A DNA stretch of 60,991 nt, counting the filler. It is 5 parts of 5 records of this genome, joined end to end, with 100 filler letters (N's around TTAATTAATTAA, not from the genome) between each part and the next. Parts side by side here need not be neighbours in the genome. Positions count along the whole stretch, not along the records: positions 1 to 15,814 come from SRR31147125_2186; 4 more parts are not named here. One strand, 5' to 3'. Position numbers and translations under genes: made by a program. Under the pieces are notes generated by a model, which worked only from the letters and a program-made list of their open reading frames with translations, was not told where the DNA came from and searched no databases. Below, piece after piece: positions 1 through 16,716 of the stretch. The first letter of the stretch is position 1; every line of letters starts with the position of its first letter.

Positions 1-515
1 TTTTTATGAAAAATTCCGGTTGTTAAAGGTACATGGATCGCCTTTGACACGATTAAGTCAATGTTGCTCAAATCCATATCAAAACCAGAACCGGACAAAG
101 TTATTCTTTTAGAATCTCTTAATGTTCTTTTCAATTTAAACGTAGCTCGAAAAGATAGTCCAAGTACAATTCCGGCACCTAAAATCCATATTACAAAGAG
201 TAACACCAGTGGATTCATTGATTCTGTATGGGAAATACTGAAAGATGCCATGGTCTCAGCCGGATTTAAAACCAGGGTAGAATTATTCTGCAATGTGCCC
301 CTTGTAAACAAATTATTCAACTGAATCGGTAAAAAAGGAGGAATTATCAATTTTAGAAATCCGAGCAGGGCTATGAGATAGGATAATTGCGCATTTTTAT
401 TCTTCATGAAATAAAGCACGATTAAAATAATGGCGAGAAAAAGTGTATTCTGTACGATGGAAACAACAAATAATTCGCTCAAACCAGTGATCCAACTATT
501 CATAATGTCAACCAT
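1..515 (-). CDS. M56 family (BlaR1/MecR1-like) peptidase, N-terminal part, runs off the window start
   Basis: Not in the ORF track. Read by hand: MVDIMNSWITGLSELFVVSIVQNTLFLAIILIVLYFMKNKNAQLSYLIALLGFLKLIIPPF...LFVIWILG...VPLTTGIFHKK. Hydrophobic N-terminus typical of M56, and it starts directly after the blaI-like stop. Confidence 0.8.
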   Translation of the reverse strand, partial: MVDIMNSWITGLSELFVVSIVQNTLFLAIILIVLYFMKNKNAQLSYLIALLGFLKLIIPPFLPIQLNNLFTRGTLQNNSTLVLNPAETMASFSISHTESMNPLVLLFVIWILGAGIVLGLSFRATFKLKRTLRDSKRITLSGSGFDMDLSNIDLIVSKAIHVPLTTGIFHK

Positions 516-516
516 T

Positions 517-908
517 TTATTTCCCTTTGAGTTCAGCTTCCTTTTGGTCTATTAATTCTTTGATCTCGGATATTTCTTTCATACTCAGATTTTCGGAATT
601 GACAATAAAACTGGCCAGTGCTGTAATAGATCCCTTAAACACTCTGGAGGTCAGATTCGATATTTCTTTTTTTACAACCTCTTGCCTCGTTTTTAATGGC
701 GTGTAAAAATAGACCAGTCCAATTTTCTTTTTTCCAGTAATCCCTTTTTTTCCAGGATATTCATTATTGTTTGCACGCTTGTGTAGGCTTTTTCACCATT
801 AGGATAGGCATTGTTCAGAACATCTCGGACAGATGGAGAGCCCTGTATCCCCCAAATGGTCTCCATAATTTCCCATTCAACCGGGGTTAGTTTAAGTTTT
901 GTTGTCAT
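517..908 (-). CDS. BlaI/MecI/CopY family transcriptional repressor (1-nt frameshift near 720-735)
   Basis: LTPVEWEIMETIW...AYTSVQTIMNILEKKG winged helix. The C-terminus (VFKGSITALASFIVNSENLSMKEISEIKELI...KGK*) continues in another frame to TAA at 517-519. Span is 392 nt, so one base is missing. Confidence 0.9.
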
Positions 909-918
909 TTTCTCTCCG

Positions 919-979
919 TACTAATTAATATATCTACTAATTACTTAGTAAGTATACTAATTTATACGTATATTGTCAA
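919..979 (-). promoter_or_regulatory. Sigma70 promoter of blaI with overlapping palindromic operator
   Basis: Minus strand TTGACA (974-979), 17 nt, TATACT (951-956). Inverted repeat TACTAA-N4-TTAGTA at 935-950, with extra TACTAA copies at 919 and 955. Confidence 0.75.
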
Positions 980-4381: not shown

Positions 4382-4674
4382 TCATCGCTCGTAATCCTTT
4401 TTCTAATTACAAAAAAAACCACATTACCTTAAGAAAAATAATGAGATTCGAATCAAAGGACAAACCTGTAACAACACGGTACTATTCACGTTCAGCAAAA
4501 CCTTGGAGTGAAAAAAACTGTGCCATTTCTTTCTGGAAGGAAATGCGAGAATTATTCATGCAAAACAATCCCTTTGTAATTATCTCACAAATTATTATTA
4601 TTAAATGAATTCATATTAACAAATCACCGAAATATTTCGATTCCTTATTAATACAGAAACATGGAGTATGATTT

Positions 4675-6282
4675 ATGCGATTCACTCTTTATTCATTTGC
4701 TGGGGTTTTACTTGTTTCAACTTTTCTAAACTGTGTAAAATCAAATAAACTCCCTGAGCCGGCTAAAGTCGGTGCGGCAGCAACACCAACCGATATCGCA
4801 CCCATCAAGGCGCCGTTTAACATGCCACAACTGCAACGTCCGTCTTTTCCGGACAAAGAATACAGCATCACCGATTTTGGCGCTACTGAAGGCGGCACAA
4901 GCAAGGTGACGCAGGCCATTCAGCAAGCCATAGACCAGGCCAGTAACAATGGCGGAGGCAAGGTCATTGTACCGGCAGGGAAATGGCTCAGTGGGCGTAT
5001 TCACCTCAAAAGTAATGTCAATCTTTATATATCAAAAGACGCCGAGTTGCACTTTAGCGGCGAAATGGAAGATTATCGCCCCCCTGTCTTTTGCCGTATC
5101 GAAAGCCTGGAATTATATAGTCTGGGTGCGTTGATCTATGCACACAAGCAGGAAAACATTGGTATCACCGGCAAAGGCACCCTTTATGGCCCGGAGAGCG
5201 GCCCGGTGCGTGAGATTGTCCTGCACACGGTCTCGGACAGCATTGTTTCCTGGCAAACGCCGGTAAAAGAGCGTGTTTACGATGGTATAGCTCATAAAAT
5301 CTATTTTCGCCCCTATTTTATCAGTCCTGTTGATTGCAGGAATGTACTCATCGAGGGCCTTACTCTAAAAAATGGTCCCATGTGGAATGTTGTACCCGTC
5401 TATTGTGAAAATGTGATCGTCCGCGGTATCCGCGTGGAAAGCGTTGACGTTGGCAACGGCGATGGTATTAATATCGAATCCAGTCGCAATGTGTTGGTGG
5501 AATATTGCACCGTCAATACAGGAGATGATTGTTATTGCATGAAAGCCGGTCGCAATCAGGATGGCGTTCGTGTCAATAAACCGGTGGAAAATGTGGTTTT
5601 AAGATACTGCAGCAGTGAGGGCGGCCACGGCGGTATCACCTTTGGCAGCGAAACTGCAGGTAAAATGCGAAATGTCTATGTTCACGATTGTGTATTTGAG
5701 AACAATAATATCGGTATTCGCTTCAAAACTCGTCGTCCCCGTGCCGGTGGCGGAGAAAACCTGACCATTGAAAATATTCGTCTGAATGTCAGGAAAAATG
5801 CCATGGAATGGGATATGCTCGGGCTATCCATATGGGTTGGCAATCTTGCGAACCGATTACCTGCTCCTCCGGTTACACCCTTAACACCCTTCTACCGCAA
5901 CATAACCATTCGTAATGTCGCTGGCCAGGCAGAACGCCATGTATTAAAAATGGAAGGACTGCCGGAAAGTCCGGTGAAAAATGTCAGCATCGAAAATGTC
6001 AATATAACAGCCAAACAGGGAATCAGCATGACCGACGGATCTGATATTTCATTTAAAAACAGTAAACTTTTTTTCACCGAAGAACCGGTCATGTCCCTGA
6101 CAGATTGCTGGAATTTAAAGTTTGAGAATGTAAAGGTCAATACACCATTACAGGCCAATATAATATTAAATGGAAAAAATTGCGAAAATATCTCCCTTGA
6201 TAACGTTCAATTTTCAGATGGACAAAAGTCAAAATTGACAGCTCGGGATGGAGCGGATGTTAAAGCTGTTATTATTGAGTAA
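4675..6282 (+). CDS. Glycoside hydrolase family 28 (polygalacturonase-like), secreted or lipoprotein
   Basis: NGDGIN, GDDC, GHGG and RFKT catalytic motifs; signal peptide with Cys. Confidence 0.92.
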   Translation: MRFTLYSFAGVLLVSTFLNCVKSNKLPEPAKVGAAATPTDIAPIKAPFNMPQLQRPSFPDKEYSITDFGATEGGTSKVTQAIQQAIDQASNNGGGKVIVPAGKWLSGRIHLKSNVNLYISKDAELHFSGEMEDYRPPVFCRIESLELYSLGALIYAHKQENIGITGKGTLYGPESGPVREIVLHTVSDSIVSWQTPVKERVYDGIAHKIYFRPYFISPVDCRNVLIEGLTLKNGPMWNVVPVYCENVIVRGIRVESVDVGNGDGINIESSRNVLVEYCTVNTGDDCYCMKAGRNQDGVRVNKPVENVVLRYCSSEGGHGGITFGSETAGKMRNVYVHDCVFENNNIGIRFKTRRPRAGGGENLTIENIRLNVRKNAMEWDMLGLSIWVGNLANRLPAPPVTPLTPFYRNITIRNVAGQAERHVLKMEGLPESPVKNVSIENVNITAKQGISMTDGSDISFKNSKLFFTEEPVMSLTDCWNLKFENVKVNTPLQANIILNGKNCENISLDNVQFSDGQKSKLTARDGADVKAVIIE

Positions 6283-6420
6283 TATATTTATGAATGCCCC
6301 GGATGAGATATCCGGGGCGATCAGAAATGATCCTGCCTGGTACGATGCCCTCAAGACCATTATCAGCTACTCGTAAACGTTTCTATCGATGCGCTACCTT
6401 GAATTTCGCCCCCACCCATG

Positions 6421-6449
6421 GATCCCCGATAGAAACGTTCGGGAATGAC
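6421..6449 (+). repeat. REP-like palindrome GAT(T/C)CCCG-N-CGGGAATGAC, copy 1
   Basis: gatccccgatagaaacgttcgggaatgac matches the copies at 15648 and 15786. Partial gtcattccc at about 6578. Confidence 0.7.
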
Positions 6450-6597
6450 ATTTCTTTTCTTAAAAGGCAATTACTAATTTAACGCCAACAAAAAGTTTAA
6501 ACAGCAGCCTCGACCACCCTAGAAACAGATATCATTCACGCAGGCAAGCCACCTGTCGTCCTTGCATGAGACACACTGTCATTCCCACAGATTTTTA

Positions 6598-7842
6598 TTA
6601 TTCTCCTGTTTTTTTCCTGGTAACCCTCTTTTTTGATATGACCACCAACACAGTTGACTGCTTTTCGACTCGTTGACCTGCAGCCGGTTCCTGGCTCAAT
6701 ATCTCACCAGGCGGTTGTTTGCTTGTGATTTCAGATTTGATGCTCGCTTTTAGGTCAAGGGATTTAAGAACCTCATTGGCAACATTGTATTGTAATCCAA
6801 AGACAGATGGCACGACGACTAAAAGTCCATGGGATACATCGAGTGCTACGACTGTATTTTTATCAACCATAATTCCTGCCGAAGGATTCTGACCTATAAC
6901 AGCCCCGTTTTGGAATTCACTCTCTTTATACTCAACCTGCCCCATCTTGAGTTGAGTTTTTTTCAAAATTTTGGTGGCCTCTTCCAGGGACTTACCTATA
7001 AGGTCCGGTACCTGAACCTGATCCGGTTTTCCTTTGGAAATGTCCAGTATAACAACGGTATTTTCCGGTACATGTTCACCAGCTGGTGGCTCCTGATTCA
7101 GAACCTGGCCGGCAGGTTGATCACTTTCAATTTCAGATCTTATTTTATAACCAAGATTCAGCTTTTCAAACACTTTTTTAACGTCAGCAATAGCCATACC
7201 GACTACCAATGGGACCTCAACCAGAATGCTTTCAGAGACAATGAGATTTATAGCATTCCCCTTTAACACAACCCGACCAGCTGCCGGATCCTGGTTTAAT
7301 ACAATACCCGAACTTGTCTCCGTTTTTTCAGTAACCACATTACCTACTTTTAGTCCCAATTTTTCAAGTCGTGCTTTAGCATATTCTAGCGATAGACCAA
7401 CAAGTGAGGGAACCAATACCTCATCAGTCGCAATAGACGGCTCCCAGGGAAGGGGATTAATTTCAAATTTTATATCTGATAACAATTCAGGTGGTGTGGG
7501 ATCACCTGGTTGTGGTAAATTTAATTCGAGTTCCCCTTTGTCATCATAAGTAATAGTTGCCTTTATTACAGGTTTAAAGGTACCAATAGCAAATTTGGCC
7601 ATACCAGGTGCAGCGATTATTTCTCTCTGCAACTCTTGTAACGTTTCTGTGAATATCGATAAAAGTTTTTTCGCAGGAATACTTGATTTGGGAATTTCTT
7701 CCCGAACTATGATTTTATCCGACAGTGTAGAGAATTCCTTTTCTATTTTCTCTTGCCTCTGTTTAATGTCCAGAAGCTGAGTTGTCAGCTCTTTTCTCAT
7801 TTTTTCAAGTAATTCTTTTAAACTTTCATTTTCGTTGTTCAC
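6598..7842 (-). CDS. Protein with coiled coil, unknown helix/beta domain and four PASTA repeats; no kinase, signal peptide or TM segment
   Basis: Four VPxxxG...Q(D/E/N)PxAG...(V/I)S repeats in the C-terminal ~275 aa. GTG start with AGGAG RBS. Confidence 0.85.
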   Translation of the reverse strand: MNNENESLKELLEKMRKELTTQLLDIKQRQEKIEKEFSTLSDKIIVREEIPKSSIPAKKLLSIFTETLQELQREIIAAPGMAKFAIGTFKPVIKATITYDDKGELELNLPQPGDPTPPELLSDIKFEINPLPWEPSIATDEVLVPSLVGLSLEYAKARLEKLGLKVGNVVTEKTETSSGIVLNQDPAAGRVVLKGNAINLIVSESILVEVPLVVGMAIADVKKVFEKLNLGYKIRSEIESDQPAGQVLNQEPPAGEHVPENTVVILDISKGKPDQVQVPDLIGKSLEEATKILKKTQLKMGQVEYKESEFQNGAVIGQNPSAGIMVDKNTVVALDVSHGLLVVVPSVFGLQYNVANEVLKSLDLKASIKSEITSKQPPGEILSQEPAAGQRVEKQSTVLVVISKKRVTRKKTGE

Positions 7843-7935
7843 AATAACTCCTGAAAAATTTTTAGGATGTAATAATAAAACGATCCTATTTTAGGTTATT
7901 CTTAAAAACACGGATTATCACTTTTTCCACATGAA

Positions 7936-8514
7936 TCAGGGCTCATTTTTGGGTTTTATGGTGGCTTTTAAACGCCATGACTCCTTTTGAATTTTCCAAC
8001 CGATGGCCGAAGGAGTAACGGAAGATACTGCCAGCTTGCCCCGGCACGTCATAGCATTATTACAAAAATAATTTTGTGATTTTTCCGGATTTTTTAATGT
8101 ATCAAAAAATGGCTTTAACCTGTTTGTATTGTCATATCCGGGCACACTCTGTCGTAAGTCCCGGATAAATCCTGTTTTGCTGCTGTTACTTGATTCTTTT
8201 TGGTGTAAAAAACCTAAAAAATCACATTCAACCTCGACATCCGCAAACTGTAATGAAACGGGGGACAGACCTAGTTCATATAATGAAATTGGTTTTTCAT
8301 TCAGCAATGTCTCAATTTTTACGATATTCCCCTGTTGATCAACCGTTTCGACAACAGCCACAATGACGGTTTTTTCCGCAAGCTCGGTATTTAACAGGAG
8401 ATTTTCTGTTTCAATCCTGTTTGTTTCAAGAGCGAGTTGACCGTCGACAACTCCTGTGGATATTTTTTCCAAAAGATCAGCAAAAGGAATCCTGTCGTAT
8501 CTATCAAAGCTCAT
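7936..8514 (-). CDS. Hypothetical protein, DUF2589-like, paralog of 9058-9711
   Basis: PFADLLEKISTGVVDGQLAL...ETVDQQGNI...SLYELGLSPVSLQFADVEVE aligns by eye with the 217-aa protein. Confidence 0.7.
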   Translation of the reverse strand: MSFDRYDRIPFADLLEKISTGVVDGQLALETNRIETENLLLNTELAEKTVIVAVVETVDQQGNIVKIETLLNEKPISLYELGLSPVSLQFADVEVECDFLGFLHQKESSNSSKTGFIRDLRQSVPGYDNTNRLKPFFDTLKNPEKSQNYFCNNAMTCRGKLAVSSVTPSAIGWKIQKESWRLKATIKPKNEP

Positions 8515-8560
8515 TCAATATGACTCCTGACATGTTCGAAATTGTTCACAAAAATTAATT

Positions 8561-8926
8561 TCAGGGTGTATTTATGGAACGAACCGTCATCTTGATTTTC
8601 GCCGCCACTTCGCCTTTAAAATTAAATAAATTTGTAAAGGTTGGGTTGATTGGCGCGGCATCCAGATGCCGAAAACCGGTTTTTCCTTCATCAGGACTCT
8701 GGCCAAAATAATTAAGAGCGACCGGCATATCCACTTCAATTTCGGGTATATGAAGCCATGGCGCTGATAATCTGGGATCAACCCTGTCGCCAAACTGTTC
8801 CAGCTGTTTCTCAAGCGAAAAGGAATAAGCTTCCAAATTAGCGCGAGCCGCAACAATTTCCCTGCCTATCTGTAAAACGAGTTCTCCAATAGGCGCAGAA
8901 AAAAGGGGCCTGGTTGTCTCTGGCAT
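8561..8926 (-). CDS. Hypothetical protein, divergent member of the same helix + beta-hairpin family
   Basis: PIGELVLQIGREIVAARANLE...PWLHIPEIEVDM...KIKMTVRSI; GGGAG RBS. Confidence 0.65.
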   Translation of the reverse strand: MPETTRPLFSAPIGELVLQIGREIVAARANLEAYSFSLEKQLEQFGDRVDPRLSAPWLHIPEIEVDMPVALNYFGQSPDEGKTGFRHLDAAPINPTFTNLFNFKGEVAAKIKMTVRSINTP

Positions 8927-9057
8927 ATTTTTCTCCCACTTTTAATGAAAGACATTTCTCAACAGATGATTTGCAAATTGAACGGCATCCAAAAGTATCA
9001 TGAATAATTTCTTTATACTTTAACTCACTAGAATACCAAAGTATGTCGGTTATACAA

Positions 9058-9711
9058 TTACGGTATGGGCACAGGTTCTGTTTTCTGAATGACCTGTGGT
9101 ACAAGTCGTGCCGGTGGATCCTTTGGTCGCAATATTGCATTTACTTTGCATTGGCCCCAATCGCCTTCAACCTTATTGGCAATGGCCACTGATGTTGACG
9201 AACTCACGATCAAATCCGAACTGTATCGTCCTTCCTTTGTAGCGCTTTGGTAACCACCACCGCCACCAATTTTAAATATACCCAGATTTAAACTAAAACC
9301 ACCACCAGCACCCCATTTTGTTTTGGACGTTTTATAGCTCCTCTCCAAATGACTATGATATTCACTTTGACGCTCATAATTATATTCGGATTTACGCATA
9401 TAGGCGACATACCTGATCTCGACAGTTGTTTCAGAAAACTGAATAAATGTTGGATTCAAGCCCCATGCCAATAAGGATAATTCACTTTCGTTTGTTTTAA
9501 ATTCGACATTTGTGATATTACCATTGGCATCCACGGTCTCGATAATCGCAATCAGGACCTCGCCTACCTGAAATTTCGTATCCGCTAATAGTTGCGCGGA
9601 TTGCACGCCGTTTAAATCCAGAGCAAGCTGGGCATCGGCAACACCCAAACCGATTTGCCGTAAAAGCTCTCCAAATGGAAAATTTTCGAATTTCTCAACC
9701 GTACTTGACAT
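9058..9711 (-). CDS. Hypothetical protein, DUF2589-like, with a long Ser/Gly-rich beta-hairpin insert
   Basis: PFGELLRQIGLGVADAQLALD N-terminal helix; GLNPTFIQFSETTVEI; WGAGGGFSLNLGIFKIGGGGGY; GGAGG RBS. Confidence 0.7.
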   Translation of the reverse strand: MSSTVEKFENFPFGELLRQIGLGVADAQLALDLNGVQSAQLLADTKFQVGEVLIAIIETVDANGNITNVEFKTNESELSLLAWGLNPTFIQFSETTVEIRYVAYMRKSEYNYERQSEYHSHLERSYKTSKTKWGAGGGFSLNLGIFKIGGGGGYQSATKEGRYSSDLIVSSSTSVAIANKVEGDWGQCKVNAILRPKDPPARLVPQVIQKTEPVPIP

Positions 9712-9755
9712 AATGTTTACCTCCAGTATAGTGAAATATAGTCCACATAAATTAT

Positions 9756-10100
9756 TTAAGACTCTTTATTTTTAACCATGTAAATATTATTATTGTCATC
9801 AACTTTATATTGCCAGAGTGGTTTGCCGGTTGCATCGGTTTTAACGGATAATTTCCTCACCCTGGTCGTATGCGAAACAGGCCCTAAATGTTTTATTTCC
9901 TTCATGTTTTTCAATACATCTGCCACATGCACCTGCAGCTGAGCAAGCAAAATCGATTGTTTGGCAAGATATTGAAAAGGCTGACCGCCGATTTCAATAA
10001 TCTTGCGCCGGATATTGTCCGGATTTGCCAAATCGTTTAAAAACAGGATATACATTTGTGATTGATTATTTGGCTGTAAATTTTTCCTATCTGCTGTCAT
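9756..10100 (-). CDS. Hypothetical protein, first gene of the operon
   Basis: 114-aa ORF co-oriented with the four downstream genes, with an alternating beta/alpha pattern. Confidence 0.6.
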   Translation of the reverse strand: MTADRKNLQPNNQSQMYILFLNDLANPDNIRRKIIEIGGQPFQYLAKQSILLAQLQVHVADVLKNMKEIKHLGPVSHTTRVRKLSVKTDATGKPLWQYKVDDNNNIYMVKNKES

Positions 10101-10272
10101 TCATGCTTTCCGTTAAAATTTATTTAAAGCACACTTTTCATCAAAATATTTACTTTGGCGACAACAATAGTCAAGTGATGACTTTTCTAAATGGGGAGCA
10201 TGGATAGCATTGAAGAAAATGCATGGAATGGCAATTGGAATAGAGAGGAAGTGGAGAAAGCTTTGAATAAAT

Positions 10273-10382
10273 AAAAAAGGCACACGACGGGTTTATCGTC
10301 TAATAAACCAGAACTGTACCTTTTCACATATCATGATAAAGATCCTTTCCCGTCAAAGGATATATTTTCATACGTGCCTTTT
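10273..10382 (-). ncRNA. Candidate structured cis-regulatory leader RNA
   Basis: Closing stem 10275-10283/10374-10382 followed by a U tract on the minus strand. Hairpins at 10290-10309 and 10342-10361. Loop 10349-10354 is complementary to 10286-10291. Confidence 0.45.
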
Positions 10383-10678
10383 AAAGAGAGTTTTATATCG
10401 CTTTTTCAACCACCCAGAGACACCGGATCATTATTCAACGTCATGAGATAACTCTTGTCGCAATTTTTTCGTTTATATGGAAACCAACATTCAATCATTT
10501 TTTTTTATTCCATACTGGCACATTTATTTTACCAATTATTTTAAATCTTTTTGTTCTTTTTTATGCAATACTTCATTAATCTTTCATTTTTTTCTTATCT
10601 TTACTAAAGAGCAATAAACTTTGATTTTGTTAATGTCCATTACATTTTTTGATTTCACGAATTGGAGCAGACAAAAAC

Positions 10679-11299
10679 ATGAACAGAATTAAATATATCA
10701 TTTTTGATTATGGCGGTGTGATAAGTAAACCACAGGATAAAAACATTGTTTATAAAATGCTCAGGCTATTAAATCTGGAAATAAACGAATTTAAAGAATT
10801 GTATACCAAACACAGATATAACTATGACGCCGGGATCATTAATGGCAGGGAGTATTGGCAGAAAACCCTGGAAGGCAATTGCAATGGTGAATTAGATTTT
10901 GACGAGATTATTAAACTTGATGTCAAGAGCTGGTTAGATGAAAATGACGCAATTCTAAATGACATAAAAAACCTGGGCAAACAATCCTTTCATATCGGCA
11001 TATTATCCAATATGACATTTGATACTTTAATATATCTACAAGATAGAGAGTGGTTTCAACTGATTCCATCAAAAGTTTTCTCGTGCCGTGTAAATGTATG
11101 CAAGCCCGATCAAAAAATATATCAGATCCTGGCTGAAAAACTCGGTGCGGATTATCAGGAGATTTTATTTATTGATGATTCAAAAGAGAATATCCTGGCG
11201 GCAGAGGAATTGGGGATTAACACCATTCACTATGTTGATTATGATACTTTTCAACAACAACTGAAAAATCAATACGGCATAAAATCAATGAATTGGTGA
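10679..11299 (+). CDS. HAD family phosphatase
   Basis: IFDYGGV, LSN, KPD and FIDDSKEN motifs. ATG at 10679 is preferred to the TTG at 10649. Confidence 0.9.
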   Translation: MNRIKYIIFDYGGVISKPQDKNIVYKMLRLLNLEINEFKELYTKHRYNYDAGIINGREYWQKTLEGNCNGELDFDEIIKLDVKSWLDENDAILNDIKNLGKQSFHIGILSNMTFDTLIYLQDREWFQLIPSKVFSCRVNVCKPDQKIYQILAEKLGADYQEILFIDDSKENILAAEELGINTIHYVDYDTFQQQLKNQYGIKSMNW

Positions 11300-11305
11300 C
11301 GGTAT

Positions 11306-12318
11306 ATGATAAATTTAATTAGAAAAAAATTAAATCCCACCTGTTATCAGGGGCATAACAAAAGGCCTCACCATTTTGAAGGATGGTATTTTAAAATCAT
11401 TGATCACGAAAAACAAAATATGTATGCCATCATCCCGGGGGTTTTCATCAACAACAATACTCATAACAGTCATTCTTTTATCCAGATTTTCGATGGTAAT
11501 AGTGCGCAGACTTTTTATAACAAATTCCCTGTTGAGGATTTTTTTCAAAAAAGAACACTTTTGATATCCGTATCAATTCCAACCACTTTTCCGCCACAAA
11601 TCTGGTCCTGGATATAAAAAATACAAACATTCATGTAAAGGGGGAACTGGATTTCACTCAATTGACACCATGGCCGATCACATTATTATCACCGGGAATT
11701 ATGGGCTGGTATGCCTGGGTGCCGTTTATGGAGTGTTATCATGGTATTGTCAGCCTGGATCACGATATCCGCGGTTCTTTATCAGTAAACGGTCAAAAAA
11801 CCGACTTTTCTGGTGGCAAAGGTTATAGCGAAAAAGACTGGGGCACATCTTTCCCCGAAGCATGGGTTTGGTGCCAGAGCAATCATTTTCAGTCACAAAA
11901 CACCAGTTTTACCGGATCTGTTGCCATTATTCCCTGGATCCGCAGGCCTTTTTTAGGTTTTATTATGGGCCTGTGGCATAAAAACAAACTTTATCGTTTC
12001 ACAACCTATACAGGGGCGAAACTAATCGAATTCCATATTGAAGAGTCAAAGGTTCACTGGATTGTGCAACAAAAAAAATATGTTCTTGAAATAACGGCAC
12101 ATCGATCAAAAGGTAGTATTTTACAAGCACCCTCTTTTGATGGAATGACGACTGAGATATTGGAATCTCTAAAAGGAACTCTTGAAATCACGTTATCCCG
12201 CGTTACCAGCACTGGCCGCTTTATGATTTTACACGATATTGGACACCATGCCGGTGTCGAGGTCGCGGGAAACCTTGAACGCATAAAGGAGATGTATGAA
12301 AAACAGGTCAATTGTTAA
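11306..12318 (+). CDS. Tocopherol cyclase family protein (frameshift near 11540-11555)
   Basis: HFEGWYFK in the first ORF; GIMGWYAWVPFMECYHGIVS and GYSEKDWGTSFPEAWVWCQSN in the second. Confidence 0.85.
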
Positions 12319-12342: not shown

Positions 12343-13276
12343 ATGGCTAATAATCAATCCACTTTTTTTAAAATGGTGCGGGCGCCATTTCTGTCTTCCA
12401 TTATTTCTCCGATACTTGCCGGCACATTACTGGCTATTTACGTCACTGGTAAGTTTGAAGGAGTTAATTTTGTCGTTGTCCTGATTATGGGTATCTGCCT
12501 GCATATAGCGACAAATGTTTACAATGATATATATGATACATTACAGGGAACGGATAAAATCAATGTCAATCGCAACGAATTCAGCGGCGGTTCCGGCGTG
12601 CTCGTGGATAATCCGGATCTGTTACCGGTTATGTATCGCCTGGCACGATTTGGTTTGCTGGGTGCACTCTTGTCAACGATAGTTTTGATGTTTCGTGTGG
12701 ATCCATCTTTACGCATTCATTTAATTCTTTTATTTCTTCTTTCCGCTTTTTTCAGCAAGTACTACACAGCTGCTCCGGTCAAACTGGCCTATCGTGGCCT
12801 GGGTGAGTTTTTTGTCTGGTTTGCCTTTGGCCCCATGGCCATTCTGGTGGCAGCGGTCAGCCAGAATGTGGGATTTCATAAAATAATCTGTGTGGCCATG
12901 CCTCTGACCGGCATTAGCACGCTCTCTATATTATTAATTGGACAGATGATCGACCTGGATGCAGATAAAGCGACCGGGAATGGGGTGTGGCAGTCAGAAA
13001 AGGCAATAAAACGACAAGTTTTCTCTATCTGGCTGTACAACTTTTTCTGTGTTTAAATATCATTTTACTGTCTGCAGTCTTTGTAGATAAAGGGTGGCCG
13101 ATTCTTTTGAGTCTAATTCCTTATATTTTATTTCTACCGCGTATCCGGAAAATTCTTCATTCAGGATACGAAAATCCGGATATGTTAAAACAAGCAGCCA
13201 AAATAAATGTCCTGCTTCATTTACTTTTTCGTTATTATTAACCGTTGGTATCCTATTAACACTTTTATTAAAGTAA
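12343..13276 (+). CDS. UbiA superfamily, MenA-like prenyltransferase (frameshifts near 12977 and 13230)
   Basis: RAPFL, NDIYDTLQGTD, FSGGSGVL, YTAAPVKLAYRGLGE, DLDAD motifs. The C-terminus continues in two other frames. Confidence 0.85.
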
Positions 13277-15814: not shown

Positions 15815-15914
15815 NNNNNNNNNNNNNNNNNNNNNNNNNNNNNNNNNNNNNNNNNNNNTTAATTAATTAANNNNNNNNNNNNNNNNNNNNNNNNNNNNNN
15901 NNNNNNNNNNNNNN
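15815..15914. other. Artificial contig linker
   Basis: 44 N + TTAATTAATTAA (stops in all six frames) + 44 N. Confidence 0.98.
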
Positions 15915-16716
15915 TTTTTCTTATAATACCAGAGCTGTCAAGTGTTCCTGCTACAGAATGTACTTGAGTGATCTCTAAAGCTTCATTAAACGTAAGGTCT
16001 GGCAATATACCAGGCAAGCTTTTTGCAAGCATCGATTTCCCTGAACCGGGTGGTCCAATCATTAGTATATTGTGTCCACCAGCAGCAGCAACTTCCATGG
16101 CTTTTTTGGCAAATACCTGACCTTTAATCTCGCTAAAATCAACATCATTTCGAGATTTAGTATTGCTAATATCCTTATAAGTTTTCACTTGTAATTTATC
16201 GATTTTTTCTTGGTTATTTAAATGAGAAACAACTTGATTTATTGTTTTTACAGGGTAAATTTTTATTATATCCAAACACTCAACTTCAGAGATATTGTCA
16301 TAAGGAATCACTGCACTATCAAAGCCAAACTTCTTTGCATCAATAAGCATAGGTAAAAGACCTTTTACCTTGCGTATTTTCCCATCCAAAGCAAGCTCGC
16401 CAAAAAACACAGTTTTATTAGGTACTCTTACAACCTGTCCACTAGCAGAAAGCAAGCCCATTGCAATGGGCAAATCATAAATAGGTCCTTCTTTTTTTCT
16501 ATCAGCAGGTGCAAGATTAATTGTTATTCTTTTTGTAGGATAATCAAGATTAGAATTTTTAATCGCTGATCTTATCCTGTCTTTAGATTCTTTTACAGCA
16601 ATACCAGGGAGACCAACAGTTTCATACGCGGGGATACCGTTAGAAATATCCACCTCAACAGTGACAGTAAATCCTGAAAGCCCAATCAGTCCAATGCTTT
16701 CAACTTTTGCAAACAA
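15915..16716 (-). CDS. comM: YifB/ComM Mg-chelatase-like AAA+ ATPase, 3'-truncated by the contig end
   Basis: VGLPGIAVKESKDR, INLAPADRKKEG, GELALDG, GPPGSGKS. Confidence 0.9.

Follow-up and report, generated by a model that had tools for sequence, protein, structure and literature searches.

The window analysed here, a stretch of 60,991 nucleotides joined from five parts, carries at positions 6598 to 10100 a cassette of five co-oriented minus-strand open reading frames (ORFs) of 114, 217, 121, 192 and 414 amino acids (aa), called g114, g217, g121, g192 and g414 below. Judged by profile comparison, g217, g121, g192 and g414 each hold a diverged copy of one domain, and the family to which they belong is best placed as a branch of the DUF2589 superfamily outside Pfam coverage, with a weaker, bridging tie to Trypco2. 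From the homologies, gene sets and domain swaps, which are observed, we infer co-assembly, membrane activity and a physiological role for the cassette; the favoured reading, to which we give a probability of roughly 0.4, is that it encodes a protease-independent, Pepco-like hetero-oligomeric ring active on membranes, with the coiled-coil PASTA subunit as its tether or trigger.

The original prediction had described five co-oriented genes lying opposite to their neighbours, and the ORFs are found exactly where it placed them, between two plus-strand genes (GH28, 4675-6282; HAD hydrolase, 10649-11299). The genes and their parts are as follows.

9756..10100, minus strand: g114, first gene of the cassette, encoding a small alpha/beta-type protein of 114 aa
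9058..9711, minus strand: g217, the long subunit assigned to the DUF2589 superfamily ('A'), 217 aa
9256..9312, minus strand: hydrophobic, Gly-flanked hairpin tip of g217, residues 134-152, GGGFSLNLGIFKIGGGGG
8561..8926, minus strand: g121, the short subunit assigned to the same superfamily ('B'), 121 aa, without the hairpin insert
7936..8514, minus strand: g192, second long paralog ('A-prime'), 192 aa, without the Gly-flanked hairpin
6598..7842, minus strand: g414, with a GTG start, 414 aa, combining a coiled coil, a helix-beta domain and four PASTA repeats ('C')
7711..7839, minus strand: N-terminal long helix of g414, of coiled-coil type, residues 2-44 in the AlphaFold2 (AF2) model
7423..7707, minus strand: helix-beta domain of g414, residues 46-140, with a helix at 57-77 and strands at 92-99, 105-108 and 122-125 (AF2; predicted local distance difference test, pLDDT, 62-80)
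6613..7422, minus strand: four PASTA repeats of g414, residues 141-410 (Pfam PF03793)

The paralogy of the 217- and 192-aa proteins, read from short shared stretches in the original prediction, was borne out by BLASTP (29% identity over 198 residues, E 8e-27). The same program aligned g121 with g217 along the N-terminal helix only (E 0.003) and reached the internal domain of g414 at E 0.017. Profiles were compared with hhalign, whose percentages are given from here on, and column-reversed profiles served as controls. The g121 family aligned with the g217 family at 99.5-99.7% (E 3.8e-23 to 3.5e-25, 128 columns; reversed control 0.5%), so that g121 is a short copy of the domain lacking the central insert. 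The helix-beta domain of g414 aligned with the g217 family at 56% when a trimmed alignment was used and at 9.8% with a deeper one. A bridge is provided by the small 'S' proteins of PASTA-less cassettes (loci L016, L017 and L020 and a Sphaerotilus plasmid, described below), whose profile aligned with the g414 domain at 89.9% (E 1.7e-6) and with the g121 family at 93.2% (E 2.9e-7), with reversed controls at or below 0.2%. In addition, a hidden Markov model (HMM) of the g414 domain matched the C-termini of separate coiled-coil proteins at six loci (L018, L019, L021, L022, L023 and L026; E 8e-4 to 4e-9), none of which had been in its building set. Because of the S bridge and these matches, the helix-strand-strand layout that the original prediction had seen in g121 and inside g414 can be attributed to homology, and by these profile comparisons residues 46-140 of g414 are the fourth and most diverged copy of the cassette domain. 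As far as sequence goes, the one solid tie of the g414 domain to the family is the S-family bridge. The layout common to the copies is an N-terminal helix followed by beta-strands, and the AF2 models of g217 and g414 are consistent with it.

Pfam and NCBIfam gave no meaningful match, and PHROGs no useful one, for the four small proteins; DUF2589 (PF11655; gathering score 23 bits) matched none of the five window proteins at E<=1, and none matched the Pfam model of Trypco2 (PF19631; gathering score 24.2 bits). A 35-member family profile found 1278 representatives at E<=0.001 among 1.84 billion cluster representatives, of which 690 remained at 1e-10 and 125 at 1e-30, and 18 of the best 149 had any Pfam match at E<=0.01. 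When 150 members were searched at E<=1, the only weak Pfam matches to recur on the domain itself were DUF2589, in five members and always under its cut-off (best 21.5 bits, E 3.3e-4, model positions 2-130 of 154), and Trypco2, in four (best 20 bits, E 8.2e-4, positions 2-76 of 78). The remaining Pfam matches were C-terminal fusions (PASTA 5, Laminin_G_3 2, Pilin 1, He_PIG 1) or singletons. Profile comparison placed the family more firmly: an alignment of six proteins from DUF2589 loci (four bona fide PF11655 matches and two neighbouring ORFs) matched the 134-sequence family alignment at 94-95% (E 1.3e-7 to 5.4e-8, about 155 columns; reversed control 0.4%), and the match takes in the helix at the N-terminus, the strand in the centre and the final strand together with the Pro-rich exit that follows it. 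The nearest 30 ESM Atlas clusters carry DUF2589 without exception (30/30; top score 0.95). The label 'DUF2589-like' given in the original prediction therefore stands as remote homology (hhalign 94.8%, E 5.4e-8, 156 columns), although no window protein reaches the Pfam model.

Bona fide DUF2589 genes were matched in 3/201 genomes of one phylum, that of Pelotalea, and canonical ones are tandem paralogs in genomes G076, G073 and G038; genome G001 carries the cassette, yet has no PF11655 match. Bona fide Trypco2 was found in 5/201 genomes. Trypco2 aligned with the g414 domain at 62-68% (control 0.9%), and DUF2589 with that domain at 0.7-0.9%. The resemblance to Trypco modules that had been suggested is real, given this alignment and the recurrence in 4/150 members, but weak.

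Two further observations concern the family at large. C-terminal fusions on the DUF2589-like subunit were seen to Laminin_G_3 (P0105 and P0150), Pilin (P0067), He_PIG (P0061) and PASTA (P0022, P0090, P0108 and P0153), and some 40 of the best 149 representatives are roughly 290-340 aa long, with the profile match split in two by a long insert.

The AF2 model of g217 is confident for a helix at residues 13-44 and for strands at 53-60, 66-73, 95-106 and 183-194, and falls below pLDDT 50 at residues 107-183 in the monomer. An insert unfolded in the monomer beside a confident core fits a segment that becomes ordered only in an assembly. The sole hydrophobic stretch within this very polar insert is the hairpin tip, GGGFSLNLGIFKIGGGGG, which is invariant among 13 close relatives (invariant columns G137-G153, alignment A1); the gene contains a direct repeat of Gly codons here (9252-9267 and 9297-9312). 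The claim that the proteins lack signal peptides is supported, as none of the five has a hydrophobic N-terminus. Kyte-Doolittle maxima were 1.03-1.18 for the four small proteins and 2.05 for g414, where the maximum falls on a PASTA beta-strand junction. A Foldseek comparison of the g217 model gave a weak match to the aerolysin prepore (E 1.2), profiles searched against PDB sequences found nothing below E 0.4, and residues 1-145 of g414 had no usable match in the ESM Atlas.

The original prediction of a kinase-less protein with four PASTA domains holds for g414. Pfam PF03793 identified four repeats (E 3.4e-53, 177.9 bits against a cut-off of 23.2), while the NCBIfam model PknB_PASTA_kin was matched in its PASTA part only (1.9e-45, model positions 365-563 of 563, 156 bits against a cut-off of 450); neither database revealed a kinase or transpeptidase part. 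The AF2 model of g414 has a mean pLDDT of 83.7, with the PASTA units at about 90, and the length of its N-terminal helix differs among homologs. Much less can be said about g114, which had no match in Pfam, NCBIfam, PADLOC or PHROGs; the other three small proteins were likewise without a PADLOC match. Relatives of g114 numbered 17 among 5.8 billion proteins, all unnamed. A three-member HMM located such relatives upstream of the cassette in L001, L002, L009, L011 and L016 and downstream in L005/L006, and g114-like genes were recognised by eye in L010, L012 and the Sphaerotilus plasmid. A likeness of g114 to subtilisin pro-domain (I9) proteins, also seen by eye, was set aside when eight members gave no I9 match in Pfam at E<=10.

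A pattern scan in which each species was represented by a single genome yielded 26 loci (L001-L026) from at least eight phyla; a scan of genome contigs with a single protein as query had yielded 0 loci. Carriers include Calditrichia, Thermoanaerobaculia, Anaerolineae, Actinomycetota, Desulfobacterota-type bacteria, Bacillota, Halarcobacter and haloarchaea, the last with six loci (L003, L005, L006, L008, L014 and L015). At least two adjacent paralogs occur in 26/26 loci, which upholds the expected conservation of the neighbourhood, and a gene set kept in order in other genomes goes far beyond chance. Among named genomes, the nearest cassette is L001, from a Calditrichia metagenome-assembled genome (MAG), where g217 is 71% identical and the order g114-g217-g121-g192 is that of the window, g192 homolog included, before the contig ends. 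The nearest database relatives of the window proteins are 99% (g217), 89% (g114) and 85% (g414) identical. The family was found in 12/201 sampled genomes of the Halalkalirubrum phylum and in 7/201 of the Pelotalea phylum, where it is no rarer than canonical DUF2589 (3/201). Among 50,697 phage records there was no family match, and among 72,556 plasmids there was one.

Three layouts can be distinguished. In Type I (L001-L015 and the window) a long A adjoins a short, g121-type B, and a protein with coiled coil, domain and PASTA follows; the PASTA protein was seen in 12/15 loci, and two further loci stop at a contig edge. In L010, a Type I locus, a PASTA+DUF4332 ORF lies 1 kb downstream. In Type II (L018, L019, L022, L023 and L026, plus L021, which is cut at its start) a full g121-type domain (A3 HMM, E about 1e-21) carries a fused DUF4332/helix-hairpin-helix (HhH) module, and downstream lie a coiled-coil/domain protein that stands alone, a pair of A paralogs, a protein of unknown kind and TPR proteins; Pfam finds PASTA in L018 and L026 and none in L022 and L023, and L019 lay outside that scan. 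Type III (L016, L017, L020, L024, L025 and a cluster on a Sphaerotilus sulfidivorans plasmid) consists of A, A-prime, the small S and a coiled-coil/domain protein, and has no PASTA. With the plasmid cluster counted, 6/27 loci are without any PASTA. This last cluster, L038, is a five-gene PASTA-less cassette from a cultured betaproteobacterium (NZ_CP035710.1, 274064-276843); the plasmid is 303 kb and non-mobilizable, and RefSeq lists all five genes as hypothetical proteins.

Domain swaps accompany these layouts. The 17 large subunits scanned carry PASTA (14), HHH_5 (8), DUF4332 (6) and a BsuPI inhibitor domain (2), and the archaeal ones among them combine PASTA with HHH_5 in 5/5 cases. PASTA/HhH modules sit on the coiled-coil subunit in L002-L015 and on the g121-type domain in L018, L019, L022, L023 and L026, where the coiled-coil subunit is separate. 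That the binding modules sit on different ring-domain subunits according to lineage suggests, in the manner of a Rosetta-stone argument, a joint function of these subunits. The BsuPI (intracellular proteinase inhibitor) domain lies between PASTA and the HhH/DUF4332 end of the Natronomonas large subunits (L014:1483-3123 and L015:1108-3114), an insertion that hints that proteases may matter to the system after all. Separately, the MAGs of L009 (labelled Actinomycetota, 41% G+C) and L011 (Calditrichota) share 90-96% DNA identity over about 11 kb, flanks included, with 90.5% in the cassette and 95.4-95.8% in the flanks; going by this identity, one of the two taxon labels is probably a binning error.

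Flanking genes were scanned at 24 loci, in two sets of 12 (ORFs of 100 aa or more, up to 5 kb away: 64/87 in the first set, 33/41 plus five extra ORFs in the second); L006 and L025, which nearly duplicate L005 and L024, lay outside the scan. No gene outside the cassette was common to different lineages, and no trypsin-like or caspase-like protease was present in these flanks. Peptidases occur near 4/24 loci (M48, M28 and YgjP by Pfam and a subtilase-like ORF in L010 recognised by eye), belong to four different families and lie in three cases on the opposite strand; the L010 ORF (5729-7255) is one of these, about 3.4 kb downstream. Upstream of the cassette there is a sigma-54 activator in L009 and L011, which also carry a Ser/Thr kinase-TPR gene on the downstream side, and there are LuxR-type genes in L019 and L022; an Eco57I/MmeI-type restriction-modification gene is found in the L018 flank, and in L019 HtpG follows the downstream TPR genes. 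In L019 (Pelotalea chapellei), an N-acetylmuramoyl-L-alanine amidase gene (Amidase_2+SH3_3; 4444-5247, plus strand) lies directly upstream of the cassette. In L010, an Acidimicrobiaceae MAG whose contig starts there, the g114-like, A and B genes come directly after a lone T4 gp19-type tail-tube gene (510-941, plus strand; Pfam E 3e-36) and a 143-aa gene of unknown kind.

Two expectations of the original prediction fare poorly against this survey. Linked effectors, proteases or contractile-injection genes are not the rule, the only contractile-type gene being the tail-tube gene in one of the 24 scanned loci. The idea that the system targets peptidoglycan is doubtful because of the archaeal carriers, the PASTA-less layouts, the missing export signal and the C-terminal HhH modules. 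Haloarchaea have no murein, and HhH modules bind DNA in other proteins.

For function, the comparison that matters is with Pepco. Trypco1 and Trypco2, first described as domains of conflict systems that co-occur with trypsin (eLife 2020, PMC7159879), have been renamed Pepco in a 2025 preprint (bioRxiv 10.1101/2025.11.14.688446); between them, the two papers present Pepco as the protease-activated pore effector of Avs4/VMAP defence systems. According to the preprint, Pepco forms constitutive 9-10-mer beta-barrels resistant to heat and sodium dodecyl sulfate, with a charged lumen, a hydrophobic exterior and basal amphipathic helices; it kills by membrane permeabilisation once the neighbouring Avs4 protease removes a charged, Pro-rich C-terminal tail (10.1101/2025.11.14.688446). 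This preprint is the only experimental anchor for the superfamily: no functional literature was found for DUF2589, mentions of which were incidental, and what was found on DUF4332 was unrelated.

On the favoured reading, the five genes would form one self-contained, horizontally mobile cassette, four of whose products co-assemble by way of their diverged domain copies into a Pepco-like, hetero-oligomeric ring or beta-barrel. The g217 protein would contribute the Gly-hinged hydrophobic hairpin tip together with an amphipathic helix for membrane contact or entry, g121 and g192 would be ring partners without a hairpin, and g414 would enter the ring through its own copy of the domain and act as tether or trigger, its coiled coil and PASTA repeats (HhH modules in other lineages) keeping a ligand-binding arm away from the ring. 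In effect, the cell may permeabilise its own membrane in a regulated way, for suicide or defence or to release its contents. Patchy occurrence (12/201 and 7/201 genomes) and lineage-specific flanks point to a spread typical of conflict or accessory modules. A more specific form of the proposal, which we regard as unlikely in its entirety, is a sense-and-perforate module: a protease-independent cousin of Pepco whose paralog ring is unlocked or nucleated by a ligand-sensing subunit with its own ring domain. Sensing would proceed through PASTA, which would thereby have a cytoplasmic role in sensing something other than peptidoglycan, or, in other lineages, through DNA-binding HhH modules, and the module would have moved among at least eight phyla, haloarchaea included; g114 and the Natronomonas BsuPI domain could be a safety catch.

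A number of results weigh against the Pepco-like ring. No conserved protease was found at the 24 scanned loci, whereas Pepco needs one. The flanks there are mostly metabolic or housekeeping genes, different in every lineage, and those in the window are ordinary chromosomal genes; neither set resembles a defence island or prophage. The only PADLOC match on the cassette, PD-T4-6, is confined to the PASTA repeats of g414. At the level of the proteins, no cassette protein has a segment of transmembrane-helix grade (Kyte-Doolittle, 19-residue window), the insert around the g217 hairpin tip is strongly polar, and no window of g217 exceeded the shuffle null for beta-amphipathicity; the Lys-alternating hairpin strand of Type III proteins (L016 and L024) reached 2.9-3.0 against a null of 2.3 +/- 0.4, or about 1.7 standard deviations. 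Trypco2 did not align directly with the g217 and g121 profiles (0.4-0.7%), and a proposed match between the Gly-rich hairpin of g217 and that of Trypco2 (E 0.048) was rejected, the reversed control scoring better (E 0.011). Structure searches with the g217 model yielded no fold match that would support a pore: Foldseek against the PDB had nothing at E<=0.001, VIA-align, run on 48,161 chains, reached a best Z of 4.7 along the long helix only, and the best entry in the BFVD viral library was an unnamed one at E 0.029. Finally, the HhH/DUF4332 modules and the TPR and HtpG neighbours suit a cytoplasmic role.

Such a role is the core of the best-surviving alternative, a cytoplasmic, non-membrane scaffold, which we consider somewhat unlikely. 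Here the paralogs would build a soluble ring, cage or filament for stress response or cell organisation, tied by the coiled-coil subunit to a large ligand, either DNA (through HhH/DUF4332) or a polymer (through PASTA). The lack of membrane segments, the polar hairpin insert and the long coiled coils would all be natural in a soluble assembly, as would HHH_5 in 8/17 and DUF4332 in 6/17 large subunits, the TPR proteins and HtpG downstream in L019-L023, the housekeeping flanks and archaeal carriers that offer PASTA no murein. However, an invariant hydrophobic tip between Gly hinges has no obvious role in a soluble assembly, a patchy and mobile distribution is unusual for a housekeeping function, and the only studied relative of the domain is reported to be a pore former (10.1101/2025.11.14.688446).

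PASTA repeats on a protein without an export signal, and the amidase gene of L019, would also be accounted for by a device for breaching the envelope or for export, with a role like that of holins or of 'type 10 secretion', in which the ring opens the cytoplasmic membrane and lets signal-less wall-binding or wall-cutting proteins, in this case the PASTA protein, reach the wall. We think this improbable, since a wall hydrolase lies beside just 1/24 scanned loci, phage records gave no match, haloarchaeal carriers and PASTA-less variants exist, and C-terminal HhH modules make little sense extracellularly. An exported antibacterial particle or surface fibre or appendage, with a PASTA arm binding target peptidoglycan and a possible link to contractile injection, would draw on the four PASTA repeats, on the Laminin_G_3 (2), Pilin (1) and He_PIG (1) fusions among 149 family members scanned and on the L010 tail-tube gene, yet is very improbable given proteins without a secretion signal, 24 scanned loci without secretion, sheath or baseplate genes, a tube gene that occurs once and is missing from the related locus L012, and the absence of any viral fold or phage match.

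Set beside known systems, the putative Pepco-like ring shows a mixture of shared and distinct traits. As in Pepco, the domain is small, begins with an amphipathic helix followed by beta-strands, and has a last strand that ends in Pro and leads into a Pro-rich tail; the weak recurrent Trypco2 signal described above adds to the likeness. Unlike Pepco, which is one gene, the cassette has three or four diverged paralogs, one of them fused to a coiled coil and PASTA, and it lacks both an adjacent trypsin or caspase gene and a STAND/Avs sensor; nor does any window protein reach the Pfam threshold, or Trypco2 align directly with g217 and g121. With DUF2589 pairs the family shares whole-domain profile homology (94.8%), tandem paralogy, the order of conserved strands and an N-terminal helix motif, A-x-x-x-Q, but none of the three DUF2589 loci fetched showed g114 or the coiled-coil/PASTA/HhH subunit. 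Strong tandem PASTA matches recall PASTA kinases (PknB/PrkC/StkP) and class B penicillin-binding proteins (PBP2x, SpoVD); g414, by contrast, has no kinase, transpeptidase, transmembrane helix or signal peptide, and its PASTA repeats are joined to a coiled coil and a DUF2589/Trypco2-type domain, an arrangement that also occurs in haloarchaea. In sensor-templated effector assembly, a sensor carries a copy of the polymerising element of a neighbouring effector, as in the amyloid-signalling pairs of fungal and bacterial NLRs. By analogy only, the large ligand-binding subunit may be compared to such a sensor because it carries the domain of its small neighbours; the cassette differs in having no NTPase and in that its shared element is not a short amyloid motif but a folded domain.

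Among the papers listed, no title or abstract disclosed a cytoplasmic archaeal PASTA protein of this kind. Also not found in the literature searched were the size of the branch, the DUF2589-Trypco2 bridge, the fourth domain copy in a coiled-coil PASTA/HhH protein, the g114 partner and the spread into haloarchaea, although the homolog lists of the Pepco preprint could include the branch. If the Pepco-like reading is correct, a large unstudied family (DUF2589 and this branch, 1278 cluster representatives) would be tied to the Pepco pore effectors, Pepco-type assemblies could be hetero-oligomeric and protease-free, and PASTA would have a testable role inside cells and in archaea, which have no peptidoglycan. 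If a soluble scaffold is closer to the truth, the cassette would still represent a widespread five-protein assembly without a described function. Direct tests are possible in three carriers that are cultured and non-pathogenic, namely Pelotalea chapellei DSM 13688, Pseudobutyrivibrio sp. YE44 and Halalkalirubrum salinum.

Within the window, which has a G+C content of 36.5%, the clear ribosome-binding sites claimed for the four downstream genes were confirmed as Shine-Dalgarno-like GGAGG, GGGAG, AGGAG and AGGAG, and a weak GGAAAG alone precedes g114; the intergenic gaps of the cassette are 44, 131, 46 and 93 nucleotides. No sigma-54 promoter was found on the minus strand at 10100-10650, sigma-70 and terminator scans around the operon did not rise above shuffles, Rfam had no match over 6000-11000, and no flanking repeats marking a mobile element were seen around the cassette. 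No trypsin-like or caspase-like protease lies within 10 kb of the cassette in the window, and no sheath, tube or baseplate gene was found there. The flank on the GH28 side consists of MscS-like, MgtE and GH28 genes, and that on the HAD side of HAD, tocopherol-cyclase-like, UbiA and GH31 genes. Beside the cassette, the tocopherol-cyclase-like gene (11306-11617 and 11662-12318) and the UbiA-type prenyltransferase gene (12343-13056 and 12987-13241) each appear to be split into two ORFs, which may reflect frameshifts, assembly errors or pseudogenes. Further along, a 285-aa ChlI/Mg-chelatase-like (YifB/ComM-type) ORF on the minus strand (15859-16716) matches positions 1-74 only of the 207 in the ATPase model and looks truncated.

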